A stretch of DNA of 64,000 bases. It comes from Salinivirgaceae bacterium (GTDB lineage: Bacteria; Bacteroidota; Bacteroidia; Bacteroidales; SZUA-534). The notes below the pieces were generated by a model. The model was not told the DNA's origin. It did no database searches and was given only the letters and a program-made list of their open reading frames with translations. Location of the stretch: assembly GCA_017551905.1 (NCBI GenBank), contig JAFZKK010000149.1:9-64008 (forward strand), in the 5' to 3' direction. The stretch's first letter is position 1. Each line of letters starts with the position of its first letter. Shown one piece after another: positions 2 through 63,792 of this stretch. The translations under genes and the position numbers were made by a program.

Positions 2-325
2 TATAACCGCAATGTGATTGTCCTGACGCAGCCCGATACCTACCGCAAAAAGCCAAACCGATTGTTGTGGCTGATGAGATTGTTTCTGCGGCGTTATCCA
101 ATGATTATCAAAGCCATGCGCGATCGCCACATAGAGTATAACCGCACCACCGCCACCATTCGTGAACGTGCCGCTCGGGGCGAAGTGTTTGTCATCTGTC
201 CCGACAAACCGCTCAATATCAGTCGAACCTCAAAAAATCCCGACGAGATGCAACGCGTCTATGAAGAAGGGCGCCGTGTGGCTTTGTCGCAAATCGATAG
301 AATCAGAGAGTATTTGAATAACTAA
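2..325 (+). CDS. patatin-like phospholipase family protein, C-terminal part (gene starts upstream of window)
   Basis: The frame is open from the window edge (nt 2: YNRNVIVLTQPD...) to TAA at 323-325. The GTG at 14 in the ORF track is only the first start-like codon in the window. The C-terminal block (VFVICPDKPLNISR...DEMQRVYEEGRRVA) matches my recall of bacterial patatin-family lipases. No search was run. Confidence 0.5.
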   Translation, partial: YNRNVIVLTQPDTYRKKPNRLLWLMRLFLRRYPMIIKAMRDRHIEYNRTTATIRERAARGEVFVICPDKPLNISRTSKNPDEMQRVYEEGRRVALSQIDRIREYLNN

Positions 326-56529: not shown

Positions 56530-56766
56530 TTATTTTGAATTGATTATCTTGATAATCTCCTCAAGACTTTTGTTCGAGTTGGGCATGATGCTTTCGGGAA
56601 CTGGCTTGCCGGTTGCCTGTGCCGCCAAATAACGCTTGCACGTTTTGTATTTTTCCGGAACCAGGCAGTACATGTTCTTGTAAGCCAAATCAGCAAAATC
56701 ATTCACAAGAACACCCTTTACAAAAATCGGGCATCTCTCAAGATTTTTACAAACATCATTCTCCAT
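56530..56766 (-). CDS. small four-cysteine hypothetical protein
   Basis: About 78 aa from MENDVCKNLERCPIF, with CX5C ... CX8C spacing. No recognised family. The start is chosen at the internal ATG. Confidence 0.4.
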   Translation of the reverse strand: MENDVCKNLERCPIFVKGVLVNDFADLAYKNMYCLVPEKYKTCKRYLAAQATGKPVPESIMPNSNKSLEEIIKIINSK

Positions 56767-56996
56767 TGTTACAACTTTTAGTTTCCCGATTACGAACATA
56801 CGAAAAAATACTATTGAGGTTACGATTTAGTCGAAAAAAACTGAATAAGATGGTTGGAAAGCCTGCATTTCGCAGGTTGACAAGAAATGTTTTTTTATGG
56901 GATACATATTTAAAAAAGAGTATTATTGTAGTTTAAAATGGAATATAGCCGGAGATATATTCAATATTCACGGCTGCAAAATTGGATTTAACAGAT

Positions 56997-58076
56997 ATGG
57001 ACGGATTCAAAAACATTGAGATTAAGAACTTCAGAGGCATTGACCATCTGACAATTGATGATTGTTCACGCGTGAATGTCTTTCTCGGGCAAAACGGTTC
57101 GGGGAAGTCATCAATCCTTGAAGCATTATTGATGATTGCAGGAATGTCAAATCCGGAACTTCCCCGAAATATCAATATGTTACGTTCAAAGGGAACATAT
57201 GGGCATTTTCTTGACGTAAGGTATATGTTTCACAATTTAATGTTAATGAATCCTCCGGAAATTTCCACAATTCAAACAAAAGGAGCGAAACGACATCTTA
57301 CTCTAAAAATGCCATTTGTTTTCGACGAACAATCTCAAACCACAACGCCGATAGGCCAAATCCAACGGTCCGACGCAATGGTTCAAGTCAATCAAGTGGA
57401 GATGAATTTTGATATTACAGAAGACGAAATCGTTAATAGGTATAAAAGCACATTGTCCTTCAACCAACAAGGTCCCATTAGGGGAAAAATTGCTGACGGA
57501 TATCAAGAAAAAATGTATGCATCACTGATTCCTGCGAATATTCCTACCGGGAATTCGACAAGTGATTTGTCGGAATTAGTAAAACGGAAAATGAAACAAT
57601 TGGTTGTTGACCGGCTTGTCTATTTTGATAATAGGATAACGACCATTGAAGTATTGTCTGACGGCGTTTTTGTTGGTATCGAAGGTGTGCCGGAATTATT
57701 ACCGGTCACAATGCACGGCGATGGTATGTTCCGTTATTTGACAATTGTGGCGGCGTCCGCCAATCCAATATCCGATGTTGTTCTGATTGACGAAATCGAA
57801 AATGGTCTGCATTATTCAGCCTACAAAAAACTCTGGGAAGCCATCTTTGCTTTGGCAACCGAAACAAACAAACAAATATTTATAACAACCCACAGCAAGG
57901 AAACTCTATACCGGTTGAACGAAATGCTTGAAGAGAAACCCTGCTACCAAGATGCATTGCGGCTATATACAATAGAGAACACCAAACTTAAAGGGCAGCA
58001 AGCATACAAATATTCCTTTGAGGAACTGAATGCCGCTTGCAAGAATGGTGTGGAAATTAGAAGTTTAGCATTATGA
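56997..58076 (+). CDS. ABC/SMC-type ATPase (AAA_21-like; AriA/OLD-family ATPase-like)
   Basis: Walker A GQNGSGKSS, signature-like HGDGMF, Walker B VVLIDEIENGLH, and His-switch ITTHS. The ATG at 56997 is preferred (the track start at 56982 is a TTG). Confidence 0.75.
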   Translation: MDGFKNIEIKNFRGIDHLTIDDCSRVNVFLGQNGSGKSSILEALLMIAGMSNPELPRNINMLRSKGTYGHFLDVRYMFHNLMLMNPPEISTIQTKGAKRHLTLKMPFVFDEQSQTTTPIGQIQRSDAMVQVNQVEMNFDITEDEIVNRYKSTLSFNQQGPIRGKIADGYQEKMYASLIPANIPTGNSTSDLSELVKRKMKQLVVDRLVYFDNRITTIEVLSDGVFVGIEGVPELLPVTMHGDGMFRYLTIVAASANPISDVVLIDEIENGLHYSAYKKLWEAIFALATETNKQIFITTHSKETLYRLNEMLEEKPCYQDALRLYTIENTKLKGQQAYKYSFEELNAACKNGVEIRSLAL

Positions 58077-58684
58077 AAGAACGTTTTCACATTATTGTTG
58101 AAGGAATTGCTGATTTAGTGTTTTTTGAACAATACTACCAACATCTGTTCGGGAAACCAGCGCCAGAAGGTTTTATTTTTAAAACTGACGGAAAAGACAA
58201 TTTGCATAAGTTTGTGAACAAGATGCGTAGTATGACGGCCAATGACGGGGTGAATCTTGTTATCTTCGATGCAGATAAAGACATAGATGCAAGGCGAAAC
58301 GAATTATTGGAGTGGAAAGAAAAAGCGGGCGTTAACTTCGAGTTGTTTTTGCTGCCAAATAACAAAAATAAAGGTGCCTTGGAAGATTTGTTGGAAAGCA
58401 TCATAAATCCGAATAACCGACCGATCTTCAATTGTTGGGAAGATTACGAAAAAGAACTTGTCAAATTAGAGATTCCTGGCCGCACACCACCGCCATTAAC
58501 CACTCCCGCCAAGAAAACAAAGATTTATGGATATTTGGAGGCATTGCTTGGACCAACGAATGACGAAAAAGAATTGATAAAAGAGCGAAATAGAGAGTAT
58601 TTCAACACAAAACATTGGAATTTGGATGCGGAGTATTTGGAGCCGTTGAGGAGGTTTTTAATTGAGCATTTAAAAGAAAACTAA
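58073..58684 (+). CDS. TOPRIM-like protein (DUF4435/DUF4276-like; AriB/OLD-nuclease-like partner of the ATPase)
   Basis: N-terminal IIVEGIADLVFF (TOPRIM Glu) and VIFDADKD (DxD). About 200 aa. The start overlaps the ATPase stop (ATGA at 58073-58076). Confidence 0.55.
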   Translation: MKERFHIIVEGIADLVFFEQYYQHLFGKPAPEGFIFKTDGKDNLHKFVNKMRSMTANDGVNLVIFDADKDIDARRNELLEWKEKAGVNFELFLLPNNKNKGALEDLLESIINPNNRPIFNCWEDYEKELVKLEIPGRTPPPLTTPAKKTKIYGYLEALLGPTNDEKELIKERNREYFNTKHWNLDAEYLEPLRRFLIEHLKEN

Positions 58685-59904
58685 TGAAAAAGAAAAACTA
58701 TACAGTAATTGACCTTTTTGCAGGGTGTGGGGGCTTATCGCTAGGCTTATATCAAGCCGGCTGGAAGGGTCTTTTTGCTATCGAAAAGAATGCATTTGCA
58801 TTTGAAACTCTGAAATACAATCTGATTGACAACAAAAAACACTTCCAATGGCCTGATTGGCTGCCTCAAAAGGAACATGACATCAATGAAGTGCTGGAAA
58901 AATATCCAAAGCAATTGGAAGCATTGCAAGGCAAGGTTGATTTGGTAGCAGGAGGACCACCTTGTCAAGGTTTTTCCATGGCAGGGAAACGTGTTGAAGA
59001 TGATGTGCGTAATCAATTAGTATTCTCGTATATTAAGTTTATCGACTTAGTGCGGCCGAAAATGATTCTTTTTGAAAATGTAAAAGGTTTTACATACGCT
59101 TTCGACAAAGGGAAATCAACTTCAACCGAGAATGAACCTTATTCTCACAAAGTAATTCGTGAATTGAGAAACTTGGGATACAATGTAAGACCCCACGTGA
59201 TTGATTTTTCTGAATACGGCGTACCACAACGCCGCAAACGTTTTATTCTTGTTGGGATTCGACAAGAATTAGGTGCACCTGAGCAATTTGAGGATTTGTT
59301 GAAAGCCAATCGCGATACTTTTTTGACAAAAAAAGGATTGAAAACAACCACCACTTTGCAAGATGCCATTTCAGACCTTTTGCGTTCCAATGGGGAAGTT
59401 TCTTCTCCAGACAGAAAAGGGTTTTATTCTGGAATATATGATAAGAAAAAACTTACGGCATACGAAAAAATAATGCGTGGAGATTACCCAAAAACACATG
59501 ATATAGCCGATAGCCATAGTTTTGCCAAACAAACACCAGATAAAATCAATTGTTACAAACGGTTGCTTGCTGAATACCCACAACGAGGTAAACGGATTGA
59601 CGGGAAATCCCGTGAGCAGTGGGGTATCAAACAACGAGGTATTACGGTGCTGGATCCCAATGCCGTTTCGCCAACCATTACGGGGCATCCTGACGATTAT
59701 CTGCACTATTGTGAGCCTCGTATCATGACCGTTCGTGAGTGCGCTCGTATCCAATCGTTTCCCGATTGGTACGAGATTAAGAAAAAGTACACCACTGGCG
59801 GCAAGATGCGCAAGTTGGAAGTTCCTCGTTATACACAAATCGGCAATGCCATTCCGCCTTTGTTTGCAGAACAAGCGGGGAATGTACTTAAAATGATGAT
59901 ATAA
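58684..59904 (+). CDS. dcm: DNA (cytosine-5)-methyltransferase
   Basis: Motif I DLFAGCGGLSLG, motif IV GGPPCQGFS, motif VI ENV, motif VIII QRRKRF, motif X GNAIPPLF. Confidence 0.95.
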   Translation: MKKKNYTVIDLFAGCGGLSLGLYQAGWKGLFAIEKNAFAFETLKYNLIDNKKHFQWPDWLPQKEHDINEVLEKYPKQLEALQGKVDLVAGGPPCQGFSMAGKRVEDDVRNQLVFSYIKFIDLVRPKMILFENVKGFTYAFDKGKSTSTENEPYSHKVIRELRNLGYNVRPHVIDFSEYGVPQRRKRFILVGIRQELGAPEQFEDLLKANRDTFLTKKGLKTTTTLQDAISDLLRSNGEVSSPDRKGFYSGIYDKKKLTAYEKIMRGDYPKTHDIADSHSFAKQTPDKINCYKRLLAEYPQRGKRIDGKSREQWGIKQRGITVLDPNAVSPTITGHPDDYLHYCEPRIMTVRECARIQSFPDWYEIKKKYTTGGKMRKLEVPRYTQIGNAIPPLFAEQAGNVLKMMI

Positions 59905-59907
59905 GAT

Positions 59908-62457
59908 ATGGCAAGTCTTCACTTTAAAACAAATGTGCAAATAAAAAGTATCATTGGTAAAGATCTTATCAATGATGATAATATTGCCATCCTTGAACTC
60001 GTCAAGAATTCCTTTGATGCAGATGCAAAACGAGTGGATATTTCATTTCTGAACCTTAAAGAAAATGACGATAGCGAAGTCGAGGAATATTCGCATAAAA
60101 CCTCGAAATTGATATTAGCTGATGATGGAGTCGGAATGGACATAGTGGATATTCGTGAGAAATGGTTAAATATCGCTTATTCCGAGAAAAAAACAAAGTC
60201 CAGACAGTATAATAGATTAATGGCTGGAGCCAAAGGTGTTGGACGTTTTTCATGTGACAGGTTAGGCAAATATCTTAATTTATACTCTACGAAAGATAGC
60301 AACACATACTATTCTTTAAAGATAGATTGGAAAAAATTTGAAATAAATGACAAAGATACAGAAATACAATCTATTGCTCTGGATTATGAAGTGTTAACTT
60401 CTTCGGAGTTATTGCAACGTGGCATCCAACCGTTTAAGCATGGTGTTGTCTTGGAGATCATAAAATTGCGCAGCAATTGGGTTGCATATGATGGCAATCG
60501 CTGGATAACAGACAAATTAACAAACTTGAAAAAGTATCTCGAAAAACTCATCAATCCCAATCAGGCATTTGAGAAGAATGATTTTGGTATATATCTAAAT
60601 GCACCAGAATTTTTGGCAGAGAATGCCGAACAGGAAGAAAATGACAAGTTTATAGGCAAAGTAGAAAATACGATTTTTCAGAAACTTGATTTTAAAACAA
60701 CAAGCATTGAGTGCAAATCAATAGAAGGTGGCTCTCAAATACAAACAACTCTTAAAGATAAAGGAGAAACTATTTATTGGATTAAGGAAGTATCGGATTA
60801 TTATCCGGCCATCAAGGATTTTAAAATCACTTTATATTTCCTTAATACTTATGCTAAAGCCTTTTTTACCAAACAAACAGGTATTCGCTCTGTTGATTAC
60901 GGTTCTATTTTTTTGTTTCTTAATGGGTTTAGAATACCTCCGTATGGAGAATTTGGCGATGATTGGTTGAAACTTGATCAAAGGCGTGCACAAGGCTATG
61001 CGCGTTTTATTAGTGCTCGTGATTTGGTTGGTCAGATAGAAATATTGGATGTAGATGAAACTTTTCAGATTGTATCCAGCAGGGAAGGATTGGTCAAAAA
61101 CGACAACTATGACATACTTACGAATAAAAAAAATGGTTTATTTTATAGGGTATTGAGACGATTGGAAAGGTATGTCGTTGATGGTTTGGATTGGGATAGT
61201 ATTCCTGAAGAAGATAGAAACAAAACGTCAGAAATCGAGAAGAAAATTATTAGTGGTGAACTTGTTGAAAAAGATTTAAAATATAAAGAAGATTCTAATA
61301 TAAAGCGACGTAGAATCTATGAAAGTATACATTATATTATTAATGCAAATCCGCAAAAGGTAATAGAATTATATATTAATGAGGACTTGATTGAGTCAAA
61401 AGTCGCAGAGGAAAAAGTGCTGGCTGAACAAGAATTTTCCCAGCTATTATCCGACTTTGAAAATAAAAAAGTATCTGGTGAACTTTTGGCACAAATATTA
61501 AGAAGAAAGGCAGAAGAGAGTGTGGAATTAGAGAAACAATTGGCTGCTTTCTCAAGATATACTACAACAGAGGCCACCTCTAAAGCTATAGCAGAGATTC
61601 AACAGTATAAAAAAACGATAGAAGAACAAACGCATGTTATTGAAGCTCTGAAAAAACAATTGGACGAAATCCAAAAGGAGATTGACGCGACAAAACAGGC
61701 TGCCCACATACGTATCTCGACTGCTGAAAAGAAGCAACAAGAAGCGGAAAGAGAGAGAGATTTGTTCAAACAAGCCAATACATACCTACAATCCACGCGA
61801 ACCATATCTGAGGAAGAAGAATCTTTTATACACATCATAAATGTCTATGCAGCAGAAATTGAACCGGCGTTTGATAAGATTGACCATATTGTAAAGTCAA
61901 ATAGTTCTATATCGAAAGAGTTTATTCTTGAGATTGGAGTCATTCGCGCTTTCTTTGATAAAATCATAAGCACAGCGAGTCTGTTGACAAAAGCTAACAT
62001 AAAAAAACTTGCAGATAAAGAGATAATAAATTTATCCGATTTTATCGTTGAATACATAAATAAGTGTTCGGAAGTTCTCTTTAGGGATATAGATTTTAAA
62101 ATCATCAATGAGAAAAATGCAGAATATTTCGGAGCATATAGTTTATTGGACATATCTGTATTGATAGATAATTTAATTAGCAATGCGAAAAAAGAGCATG
62201 CTGATAAAATACAAATAAATATCTTCCAAAAAGAGAACAAATATGTTATAGATTTTTCAGATTCTGGTAATGGAGTTTCAGACCCCACTATAGGAAAGCA
62301 CATGTTTGACATAGGTGTAACTACCCGCTATGGAGGATCTGGAATAGGCCTCGCATCAGTTAAAAAGATAGTGAACGATATGAATGGGAAAATCTCGTTC
62401 TTGGGGAATAATATATATCTCAAAGGAGCAACATTTAGAATAGAATTTGACATATGA
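59908..62457 (+). CDS. dual-GHKL protein: N-terminal MORC/Hsp90-like ATPase (HATPase_c_3-like), coiled coil, C-terminal histidine-kinase-like ATPase
   Basis: N-terminal module: ELVKNSFDADA (N-box), LADDGVGMD (G1), GAKGVGRFS (G2). Long K/E/Q-rich helical segment. C-terminal module: LIDNLISNAKKE (N-box), DFSDSGNGV (G1), GGSGIGLASVKK (G2). A candidate phospho-acceptor motif, ESFIHIINVY, lies upstream of the second module. Confidence 0.7.
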   Translation: MASLHFKTNVQIKSIIGKDLINDDNIAILELVKNSFDADAKRVDISFLNLKENDDSEVEEYSHKTSKLILADDGVGMDIVDIREKWLNIAYSEKKTKSRQYNRLMAGAKGVGRFSCDRLGKYLNLYSTKDSNTYYSLKIDWKKFEINDKDTEIQSIALDYEVLTSSELLQRGIQPFKHGVVLEIIKLRSNWVAYDGNRWITDKLTNLKKYLEKLINPNQAFEKNDFGIYLNAPEFLAENAEQEENDKFIGKVENTIFQKLDFKTTSIECKSIEGGSQIQTTLKDKGETIYWIKEVSDYYPAIKDFKITLYFLNTYAKAFFTKQTGIRSVDYGSIFLFLNGFRIPPYGEFGDDWLKLDQRRAQGYARFISARDLVGQIEILDVDETFQIVSSREGLVKNDNYDILTNKKNGLFYRVLRRLERYVVDGLDWDSIPEEDRNKTSEIEKKIISGELVEKDLKYKEDSNIKRRRIYESIHYIINANPQKVIELYINEDLIESKVAEEKVLAEQEFSQLLSDFENKKVSGELLAQILRRKAEESVELEKQLAAFSRYTTTEATSKAIAEIQQYKKTIEEQTHVIEALKKQLDEIQKEIDATKQAAHIRISTAEKKQQEAERERDLFKQANTYLQSTRTISEEEESFIHIINVYAAEIEPAFDKIDHIVKSNSSISKEFILEIGVIRAFFDKIISTASLLTKANIKKLADKEIINLSDFIVEYINKCSEVLFRDIDFKIINEKNAEYFGAYSLLDISVLIDNLISNAKKEHADKIQINIFQKENKYVIDFSDSGNGVSDPTIGKHMFDIGVTTRYGGSGIGLASVKKIVNDMNGKISFLGNNIYLKGATFRIEFDI

Positions 62458-63158
62458 GAACACATTGCTTAATAATAGATGATGATAATCAGGAAGAATA
62501 TTTCAATACTCATGTGCAGCGCGTATTAGGAGCTGAAGGTATTGAAGTCGTTCCTGTTTTTATCAAACCTACAGAGCGAAAATACATAAAACCAGACCAT
62601 TCCGGTTTGGATATAGATTCCATTATTTCGGATTGTAATAACTTGATAGAAACATTAGATGTATCCATCATTGTTTCTGATTATAAGATTGCCACAAGAA
62701 AAGATTCTTTTACTGGTGTGGATATAGTTTTAGCTCTTATAGAAAGATATCCCCAAATTTATAAGATATTATATTCTGCCACAATTAAAGATGCCATTAA
62801 ACAAGTCTTATCATTATTGCCTGCGAAAGCTAAAATTGATGATATAGATGTCGATAAAGTTATTGAAGATTTGGCAAGGATAGCCAAAATAAATGATTTT
62901 GTCAGTGGTAAAGGGTATGAGCAGAAACTAATAAAACATCTTCGCAATCCGGAAATACAATATAAGCAGCATTTAATCAATGTTCTTAAAGAATGTGCCC
63001 CAGATATTGTATTTAAATCATGTTATCCTCCGTTTGTTGGAAAGACATTAAAGGAAATTGGGAAAGAAATAGAATCTGATACACTCCAAGGACGTGAATT
63101 TCAGGAAGAATTGATTCGTCAAACACTTGCATATATAGTAGCCGTCAATCATGAGTAA
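62454..63158 (+). CDS. receiver-like (REC-fold) protein with uncharacterised helical C-terminal half
   Basis: CLIIDDD (beta1 acidic cluster), SIIVSDYKI (candidate phospho-acceptor Asp76, nt 62679-62681), KILYSAT (beta4 Ser/Thr). The start overlaps the upstream stop (ATGA). Confidence 0.45.
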   Translation: MRTHCLIIDDDNQEEYFNTHVQRVLGAEGIEVVPVFIKPTERKYIKPDHSGLDIDSIISDCNNLIETLDVSIIVSDYKIATRKDSFTGVDIVLALIERYPQIYKILYSATIKDAIKQVLSLLPAKAKIDDIDVDKVIEDLARIAKINDFVSGKGYEQKLIKHLRNPEIQYKQHLINVLKECAPDIVFKSCYPPFVGKTLKEIGKEIESDTLQGREFQEELIRQTLAYIVAVNHE

Positions 63159-63792
63159 AACTGTTTGTATATATTCTCAAGAGAGGGACGGTTCTACGGA
63201 TTTCCTAAAACCTCTATATGACCATATTTGTACGACGCTCTCTGCAGATGGCGTTGGCTATGATGCGGATAGTGAAGAGGATACTATTTCCAGAATATAT
63301 GATGCCACTAAGGATGCAGATACAATTATTTTCTTAGGGCATGGTAATAGCAAGGGGCTATATGCATGTGTTCAGGATAATTTTGAATTATTCAATCAGA
63401 AGAATGTTGCTATGTTGACTGATAAGTCATTGTTCCTACTTGCGTGTAGATCATCTGATTTTATAAAAAGATTCTCCTTAACTAATGCTATCGGCTTTGG
63501 GCATTTACCTACAAGTAATGAAGATGCTAAACATTGGAATAATGAGCATAGTATCGCATTGAATGATTTTTCTAAAGATGATATTAAACTTTACGATAAC
63601 GCAATAGTAAGTATCCTCTACAATGCGATAGCCCCCGAAACAATATCAAATTCCAATCTGCTATATAATAGGATTAAGTTACAAGCGAGTATGGAAATTG
63701 TCAAGTGTCTTATTCTGCACAAAGATAACCCGCATTACCGGAAGATAGCCGATTTGTTATTCTATTTGCAGAAAGATATACGGATACAATAA
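63151..63792 (+). CDS. hypothetical protein with caspase/CHAT-like His...Cys dyad pattern
   Basis: A hydrophobic strand plus GHG (TIIFLGHGNSKG, His64 at 63340-63342). About 35 residues later, a hydrophobic strand plus AC (SLFLLACRSS, Cys99 at 63445-63447). It overlaps the upstream gene by 8 nt. The function is inferred only from this pattern. Confidence 0.35.
   Translation: MSKTVCIYSQERDGSTDFLKPLYDHICTTLSADGVGYDADSEEDTISRIYDATKDADTIIFLGHGNSKGLYACVQDNFELFNQKNVAMLTDKSLFLLACRSSDFIKRFSLTNAIGFGHLPTSNEDAKHWNNEHSIALNDFSKDDIKLYDNAIVSILYNAIAPETISNSNLLYNRIKLQASMEIVKCLILHKDNPHYRKIADLLFYLQKDIRIQ

Follow-up and report, generated by a model that had tools for sequence, protein, structure and literature searches.

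HEF_HK/Response_reg_2 elements, predicted computationally in 2021 by Bellieny-Rabelo, Pretorius & Moleleki (PMC8011034; PF19191/PF19192), combine a Dcm methylase, an 'HK-like' protein whose domains are HATPase_c_3, HEF_HK and HATPase_c, and an 'RR-like' Response_reg_2 protein, which were linked in 91.6% of 644 regions; experimental work on this class was not found in a literature search. Ambrosia (AbrR-AbrA-AbrB-AbrC-AbrD) was validated as an anti-phage system in 2025, and its defence was abolished in the receiver mutant AbrC D60A (van den Berg et al., bioRxiv 10.1101/2025.09.30.679545). In Detocs (DtcA/DtcB/DtcC), defence is lost when either the kinase His or the receiver Asp is mutated (Rousset et al., bioRxiv 10.1101/2023.01.24.525353). 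The present analysis concerns a 234-amino-acid protein, X, encoded in a 64,000-nucleotide stretch (the window) of contig JAFZKK010000149.1 from a Salinivirgaceae bacterium. X represents a new receiver family, invisible to Pfam, in the known class of methylase-linked phosphorelay cassettes. Its gene lies between those of an 849-amino-acid dual-GHKL protein (G) and a 213-amino-acid protein (Y), behind a C5 cytosine methylase (Dcm1).

Shared with the HEF_HK/Response_reg_2 elements is the gene order, in which Dcm comes first, a soluble protein carrying HATPase_c_3 at its N terminus and HATPase_c at its C terminus second, and a receiver-like protein third. G is homologous along its full length to real HEF_HK members (E=1e-29 to 1e-39), and in both kinds of receiver the DD, D and S/T positions are conserved and loop insertions are present. 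Response_reg_2 proteins, however, are 528-615 amino acids long with a large C-terminal part and no Y, whereas X is short and is accompanied by a separate, probably caspase-like Y. The real members L064-L066 encode Dcm, a HEF_HK protein of ~990 amino acids and a Response_reg_2 protein of 528-575 amino acids, again with no Y. The X family is also closer to the canonical receiver family PF00072.

Placement of X in the Response_reg_2/HEF_HK families themselves was rejected. PF19191 and PF19192 matched none of the window's proteins in Pfam scans at E<=1, and a six-frame search of the genome at E<=10 gave no match to PF19192 and one match to PF19191 elsewhere in the genome. PF19192 was matched by 2 of 132 X relatives, at E values of at least 0.015, and hhalign of the X family against the real members gave 24.7% probability over 43 columns. 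These comparisons detect no closer tie of the X family to Response_reg_2 than to receivers in general. The idea that X and Y are a long Response_reg_2 protein split in two was discarded as well: the X and Y profiles miss those proteins, the Y profile found nothing in the C-terminal parts of the real ones, and the profile of the C-terminal tail of X showed no similarity to any part of them. In other Bacteroidota (L031-L034), open reading frames (ORFs) of ~240-250 amino acids with sub-threshold PF19192 matches (21-28 bits, model positions 40-106) were observed that are missed by the X profile; they may form one more family of short receiver-like proteins within this class.

With Ambrosia the window's cassette shares the grouping of methylase, histidine-kinase/HSP90-like ATPase, receiver and effector genes in one operon, and Ambrosia gives experimental support for the methylase-linked kinase-receiver class. 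The two were set apart by the published description of Ambrosia, which lists an XRE regulator, an N6-adenine methylase, a regulator with a receiver (REC) plus a wHTH (winged helix-turn-helix) domain, and an HNH nuclease, whereas the X cassette has no XRE gene, a C5 methylase, a receiver whose tail is not a wHTH and a caspase-like fourth gene, with HNH only as a variable neighbour. Detocs, with which a preliminary description of this DNA had compared X, shares only the logic of a phosphorelay from a soluble kinase through a receiver to a toxic effector. It has a TPR-sensor kinase and two receiver proteins, namely the buffer DtcB and DtcC, to which a PNP effector is fused, and it lacks a methylase; the X cassette has a MORC-like GHKL sensor, a single receiver and a separate candidate effector, and no Detocs model was among the PADLOC matches. 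The comparison stands as a loose analogy, the HEF_HK/Response_reg_2 elements and Ambrosia being closer precedents, and X is not a Detocs protein.

Receiver fold and predicted phospho-acceptor pocket of X

The translational coupling of X to the dual-GHKL gene that had been proposed earlier was borne out: the ORF is real, and its start ATG shares the ATGA at 62454-62457 with the TGA stop of G. At its 3' end gene X overlaps the start of gene Y (63151) by 8 nucleotides. A search of the whole sequence library with a hidden Markov model of the family (E<=1e-3) yielded 183 cluster representatives, nearly all of 220-250 amino acids and matched from end to end. The main alignment and profile were built from 132 members, while conservation in the pocket was counted over 139. 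The names seen for family members in the source databases all read 'hypothetical protein' except one, an NCBI 'response regulator'. The family is rare, with full-length members in 3 of 401 sampled Bacteroidota genomes; the remaining matches of the X profile in that search were ordinary receivers inside larger proteins.

Residues 1-163 of X form, almost certainly, a divergent CheY-like receiver fold. Receivers of response regulators, dozens in number, made up almost all PDB matches of the 132-member profile; the best was RR468 (E=4e-7), and NtrC1, CovR, PhoP and CheY were among the others. When the 132 relatives were scanned singly, 66 matched PF00072 at E<=1 (best E=9e-8) and 22 matched cREC_REC. 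An hhalign comparison of the family with E. coli CheY gave 74% probability and equated D76 with D57, G88 with G65 and S108-A109 with T87-A88. PF00072 gave no match at E<=1 on X itself; its membership of the receiver superfamily rests on profile and fold evidence. A PDB search with a profile of 13 close relatives found no match, and single-sequence searches of PADLOC and PHROGs returned nothing meaningful, the sole PADLOC match being weak (E=0.0012) and to the candidate model PDC-M49A.

The AlphaFold2 (AF2) model of X built from 43 sequences (predicted local distance difference test score, pLDDT, 85.8; predicted template modelling score 0.74) shows a (beta-alpha)5 topology. In a Foldseek search of the PDB with this model, receivers made up 48 of the top 50 targets (best E=9e-6), with template modelling scores, normalised to the target, of 0.56-0.70 for stand-alone receiver domains, and receivers also ranked first in a Foldseek search of a viral structure library. 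A model built earlier on 13 close relatives was of low quality (pLDDT 61.7) and was not used for the C-terminal half; among its Foldseek targets KaiC, TIR, PurE and PTS-IIA stood beside receivers. The REC pattern noted in the preliminary description is therefore recovered by both profile and structure searches, and the strings on which it was based lie at residues 6-11 (LIIDDD), 72-78 (IIVSDYK) and 105-110 (ILYSAT). Its placement of the receiver in the N-terminal part holds, whereas the end of the domain moves from about residue 115 to about residue 163 in the AF2 model.

The acidic pocket, whose conservation among homologues had been named as a point to check, is strongly conserved in the 139 members. 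D9 is present in 137, position 10 is D in 119, N in 14 and E in 6, and D76 is invariant. G88 is found in 137, position 108 is always S (133) or T (6), and position 109 is G, A or S in 133. Position 149, the equivalent of Tyr106 of CheY, is F or Y in 101 members and aliphatic in the others. Directly after beta5, position 152 is Arg in 109 members, Lys in 10 and Gly in 16; the Gly152 members, which include the window's clade, carry Lys153 in 16 of 16 cases, a compensated shift of the basic residue. A basic residue after beta5 is thus kept in 136 of 139 members, as are all five positions of the phospho-chemistry. From this conservation Asp76 is probably a real phospho-acceptor. The catalytic positions are all kept in the family, which makes the earlier suggestion of a pseudo-receiver unlikely.

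In comparison with the canonical CheY-like receiver (PF00072), X shares the (beta-alpha)5 fold, the acidic pair, the acceptor Asp, the S/T position and the aromatic switch, and it also keeps a basic residue after beta5, although the canonical Lys is Arg in most family members. It differs by two insertions, of 16 residues between beta2 and alpha2 and of ~25 residues between alpha4 and beta5. The first accounts for the spacing between beta1 and beta3, which had correctly been described as longer than canonical: D10 and D76 are 66 residues apart in X (58-73 in the family), against 44 in CheY. The second falls partly in the gap-rich, variable alignment columns 120-134, and the distance from S108 to the basic residue has a family median of 41, against 22 in CheY.

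The four-gene cassette and its partner proteins

The genomic context of X homologues was compared at 15 independent loci, of which the window is one; the others are the metagenome contigs L001, L004/5 and L008/9, Myroides L014, L016, Olivibacter L018, two Bacteroidota genomes (L067, L068) and six metagenome-assembled genomes of Bacteroidales, Prevotellaceae and Lentimicrobiaceae (L069-L074). The order G-X-Y, with overlapping or nearly abutting genes, was found in all 15, over a range of X identity from 82% to ~20%, and a C5 methylase (Dcm) precedes G wherever the contig extends far enough. The 3' flank is variable. Nothing related follows the cassette in L014 and L016, HNH with or without Vsr follows in L008, L018 and L071, and further methylases, a McrB-like AAA_5 protein and a DUF2357-PDDEXK_7 protein follow in L069 and L072, with a similar arrangement in L001. 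A second Dcm followed by AAA_5 is present in L001, L069 and L072, the DUF2357-PDDEXK_7 gene lying further downstream in the latter two. Because this flank varies between loci, the four genes Dcm, G, X and Y are regarded as the unit. The second C5 methylase that begins at the end of the window probably belongs to a separate neighbouring module of LlaJI/McrBC type.

Between the window and L070-L074, identity was 76-79% for Dcm1 and 70-74% for G, against 42-43% for X and 29-33% for Y. Either the X-Y pair changes much more rapidly than the methylase and the kinase, or it is swapped as a unit. These values fit a functional X-Y pair: the two proteins diverge in parallel, whereas Dcm and G remain conserved. 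Within G, the middle domain was 79-82% identical and the coiled coil 54-73% in the same comparison.

G is a soluble fusion of a MORC/paraMORC-type GHKL ATPase, a coiled coil and a histidine-kinase core. In the PDB, a profile of its C-terminal 236 residues found sensor histidine kinases and nothing else (41 matches, best E=6.6e-10), and the alignment with HK853 runs through the DHp helices. The N box (DNLxSN), G1 (DxGxG) and G2 (GSGIG) boxes and one His are invariant across divergent G homologues, including those whose X proteins are only ~20% identical. This His, His642, lies ~115 residues before the N box, which is a normal distance, and it may be the phospho-donor. The sole PADLOC match of G was DruC, at E=0.079.

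Some further features of G were observed. The canonical H-box 'SHE' of HK853 falls on 'SEEEE' in the window's G clade, and EEESF (G residues 636-640, window 61813-61827) adjoins His642. The invariant His stands ~7 residues, or two helical turns, past the place of the HK853 H-box, which points either to a fault of the alignment or to an acceptor site that has shifted. Conservation within the cassette is highest in the middle domain of G, at residues ~330-420, which have no Pfam match; their motif reads YGS-FLF-NGFRI-PYG--GDDW--L--R--QGY-R----RDL-G-I, then F---SSR-G, and in the MORC-like module they may be the part that resembles an S5/transducer domain or serves as a DNA clamp.

For Y, H64, G65, C99 and S101 are invariant in 15 sequences, and a Y profile matched almost only caspases in the PDB, with the His/Cys dyad aligned. 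A caspase-like identity is probable on this pattern and is taken as a lead rather than a result.

Table 1. Features of gene X and of the surrounding cassette, with positions in the window
Feature	Residues	Window position	Strand	Basis
Dcm1, C5 cytosine DNA methylase, cassette head		58684..59904	+	PF00145 E=5.5e-60
Gene G, 849 aa: MORC-like HATPase_c_3, coiled coil, histidine-kinase-like DHp+CA		59908..62457	+	PF13589 25-156, PF02518 750-848
Candidate phospho-donor of G (in FIHIIN)	His642	61831..61833	+	invariant in 7, then 9 divergent homologues
Gene X, 234-aa receiver protein		62454..63158	+	ORF; 14 close homologues; 183 representatives at E<=1e-3
X, REC domain	1-163	62454..62942	+	AF2 model, Foldseek, profile matches
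X, beta1	2-8			AF2 model
X, acidic cluster at end of beta1, metal-binding pair	D9-D10-D11	62478..62486	+	aligned to RR468 DD
X, alpha1	14-27			AF2 model
X, beta2	31-37			AF2 model
X, insertion 1, between beta2 and alpha2	38-53	62565..62612	+	AF2 secondary structure, spacing statistics
X, alpha2	54-68			AF2 model
X, beta3	72-76			AF2 model
X, predicted phospho-acceptor at end of beta3	Asp76	62679..62681	+	aligned to CheY D57, RR468 acceptor Asp
X, alpha3	88-98			AF2 model
X, beta4	103-108			AF2 model
X, [ST][AG] motif at end of beta4	Ser108-Ala109	62775..62780	+	aligned to CheY T87-A88
X, alpha4	111-119			AF2 model
X, insertion 2, variable loop and extra helix, alpha4-beta5	120-144	62811..62885	+	AF2 model, alignment
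X, extra helix between alpha4 and beta5	133-144			AF2 model
X, beta5	148-151			AF2 model
X, beta5 with aromatic switch position and basic residue	F149-V-S-G152-K153	62898..62912	+	conservation, model
X, alpha5	155-163			AF2 model
X, C-terminal domain, three helices, acidic	166-234	62949..63155	+	alignment, AF2 model
X, tail helices	166-181, 199-207, 211-233			AF2 model
Gene Y, 213 aa, probable caspase-fold effector		63151..63792	+	invariant His64/Cys99; after X in 15/15 loci
Second C5 methylase, start only, cut by contig end		63822..64000	+	contig ends at 64068

Other genes were noted around the cassette. An ATPase (364 amino acids) and a TOPRIM/DUF3226 protein (203 amino acids) are encoded directly 5' of Dcm1 at 56982-58684, and the same pair stands in this place in L071 and L073 (57-59% identity), that is in 3 of 15 loci. 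The label 'PARIS-like' was dropped for it, as its best PADLOC matches were AbiLi (E=2e-59) and AbiLii (1e-5), not AriA/AriB. An 89-amino-acid ORF with four cysteines (56530-56799, minus strand) lies at the compositional boundary between an amylase gene and an AT-rich island. In L069, which holds the nearest relative of X (82% identical), the second Dcm is followed by a McrB-like AAA_5 protein, an SLFN/AlbA_2 + HATPase_c_4 protein and a DUF2357-PDDEXK_7 (McrC-like) nuclease.

C-terminal tail, output and proposed mechanism

The C-terminal part of X had been described as ~120 helical residues with no DNA-binding or enzymatic assignment. Its helical character and the lack of such an assignment stand, while the unassigned part shrinks to ~70 residues (166-234). 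The tail carries the conserved motif F-x-S-x-Y-P-x-F-x-G-K-T-L-x-E-I-A and is acidic throughout the family (median isoelectric point 5.2, net charge -3), being net positive in 15 of 132 members. No consistent match to Pfam or the PDB was found for it, either as a profile or with 63 members searched singly. The candidate of a LuxR/NarL helix-turn-helix (HTH) was rejected at 0.2% hhalign probability to the NarL HTH.

The reading we favour, and hold to be reasonably probable, is that X is the phosphorylatable receiver of G in a four-gene, restriction-modification-like cassette and relays to Y. The MORC-like module of G would sense DNA without the cytosine methylation of the cassette, or another infection cue; sensing of unmethylated DNA by such a module is the long-proposed paraMORC idea. 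The kinase core would then autophosphorylate on His642 and pass the phosphate to Asp76 of X, where a Ser108/Phe149 switch would alter the alpha4-beta5-alpha5 face and the C-terminal module attached to it. In this altered form X would switch on or release the caspase-like Y via protein-protein contact, and the outcome would be abortive infection or addiction, not DNA cutting. Of this scheme, the fold, the constraint on the pocket, the kinase features of G and the fixed gene order are shown, whereas phosphotransfer, the kind of signal and Y as the target are inferred.

An output through protein contact is favoured because the tail is acidic, no DNA-binding family matches it, Y is the only other invariant gene and X and Y diverge together; that this contact is with Y is put forward tentatively, at slightly less than an even chance. 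The complete chain, in which a MORC-like ATPase reads the methylation status, a His-Asp transfer reaches X and a minimal caspase-fold protease is set free to act through the acidic tail as a new protease-gating adaptor domain, is conceivable and rather doubtful. To our knowledge, no caspase-like effector under phosphorelay control has been described in any two-component system.

Several observations weigh against the favoured reading. Searched as a single sequence, X has no match in NCBIfam or among PDB chains and none in Pfam below E=0.075, and PF19191 misses G. The preference for Arg over the canonical Lys after beta5 is unusual for receivers, and in X the Lys is displaced by one residue; either could alter or abolish the normal phospho-chemistry. 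The conserved His of G aligned neither with the H-box His of HK853 nor with the HEF motif. The caspase matches of Y are weak (E 0.04-0.7) and were still not significant with the larger alignment of 15 sequences, and X and Y are linked by gene order and parallel divergence only. Lastly, the GKTLxEIA stretch of the tail has an HTH-like sequence pattern, with which a DNA-binding output is compatible.

This last point leads to the possibility, which we consider unlikely, that X is a transcriptional response regulator with a degenerate HTH tail, whose phosphorylated Asp76 induces the cassette or neighbouring restriction genes. There is a precedent in Ambrosia, where AbrC combines REC and wHTH and is the proposed inducer of the operon on infection (bioRxiv 10.1101/2025.09.30.679545). 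In the tail, the conserved G-K-T-L-x-E-I-A-x-E-I, behind which come a turn and a helix, looks like the opening helix of many HTH motifs, and several full-length NarL-type regulators could be aligned by Foldseek over 188-250 columns. These full-length alignments, however, have root-mean-square deviations of 15-21 A, and the hhalign comparison with the NarL HTH failed as given above. No HTH family was matched by the 63 members searched singly or by the profile, the acidity of the tail extends to its last helix, and in the AF2 model X ends with a long helix and has no wing.

It is quite unlikely that X serves as a phosphate sink or buffer like DtcB, the stand-alone receiver proposed to absorb stray phosphate (bioRxiv 10.1101/2023.01.24.525353), or as a non-phosphorylated pseudo-receiver that scaffolds G and Y while the output of G bypasses it. 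The replacement of the beta5 Lys by Arg in most members and the large insertions in the receiver would suit such a role. X is, however, the only receiver of the cassette in 15 of 15 loci, so that there is nothing to buffer for. Its catalytic positions are strongly constrained, as seen in the invariance of D76 (139/139) and the compensated basic shift, and the conserved C-terminal module would be needless for a mere sink. Very improbable is a role of X in regulating the MORC-like ATPase or the methylase instead of Y, by feedback on G or by holding back effector activity as long as the genome lacks methylation. In its favour, direct or indirect control of restriction-modification systems by such pairs is a speculation of Bellieny-Rabelo et al. 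(PMC8011034), X overlaps G by the ATGA, and second methylases and McrBC-like genes often lie 3' of the cassette; but these downstream genes are variable and absent in several loci (L014, L016), whereas Y is always present, and the divergence of X tracks Y, not G or Dcm.

With X as the receiver between G and Y, the main interest lies in how a receiver signal is converted into defence in methylase-linked cassettes, and here the output of X is the interesting point: this variant has a tiny adaptor tail and a separate caspase-like protein in place of a DNA-binding or nuclease output. The cassette offers a simple system for asking whether a bacterial receiver gates a protease, as well as whether MORC-like ATPases sense unmethylated DNA. 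As the family escapes the current Pfam, NCBIfam and PADLOC models, its members are missed or annotated as 'hypothetical', and a profile from the 132-member alignment would mend this annotation gap.

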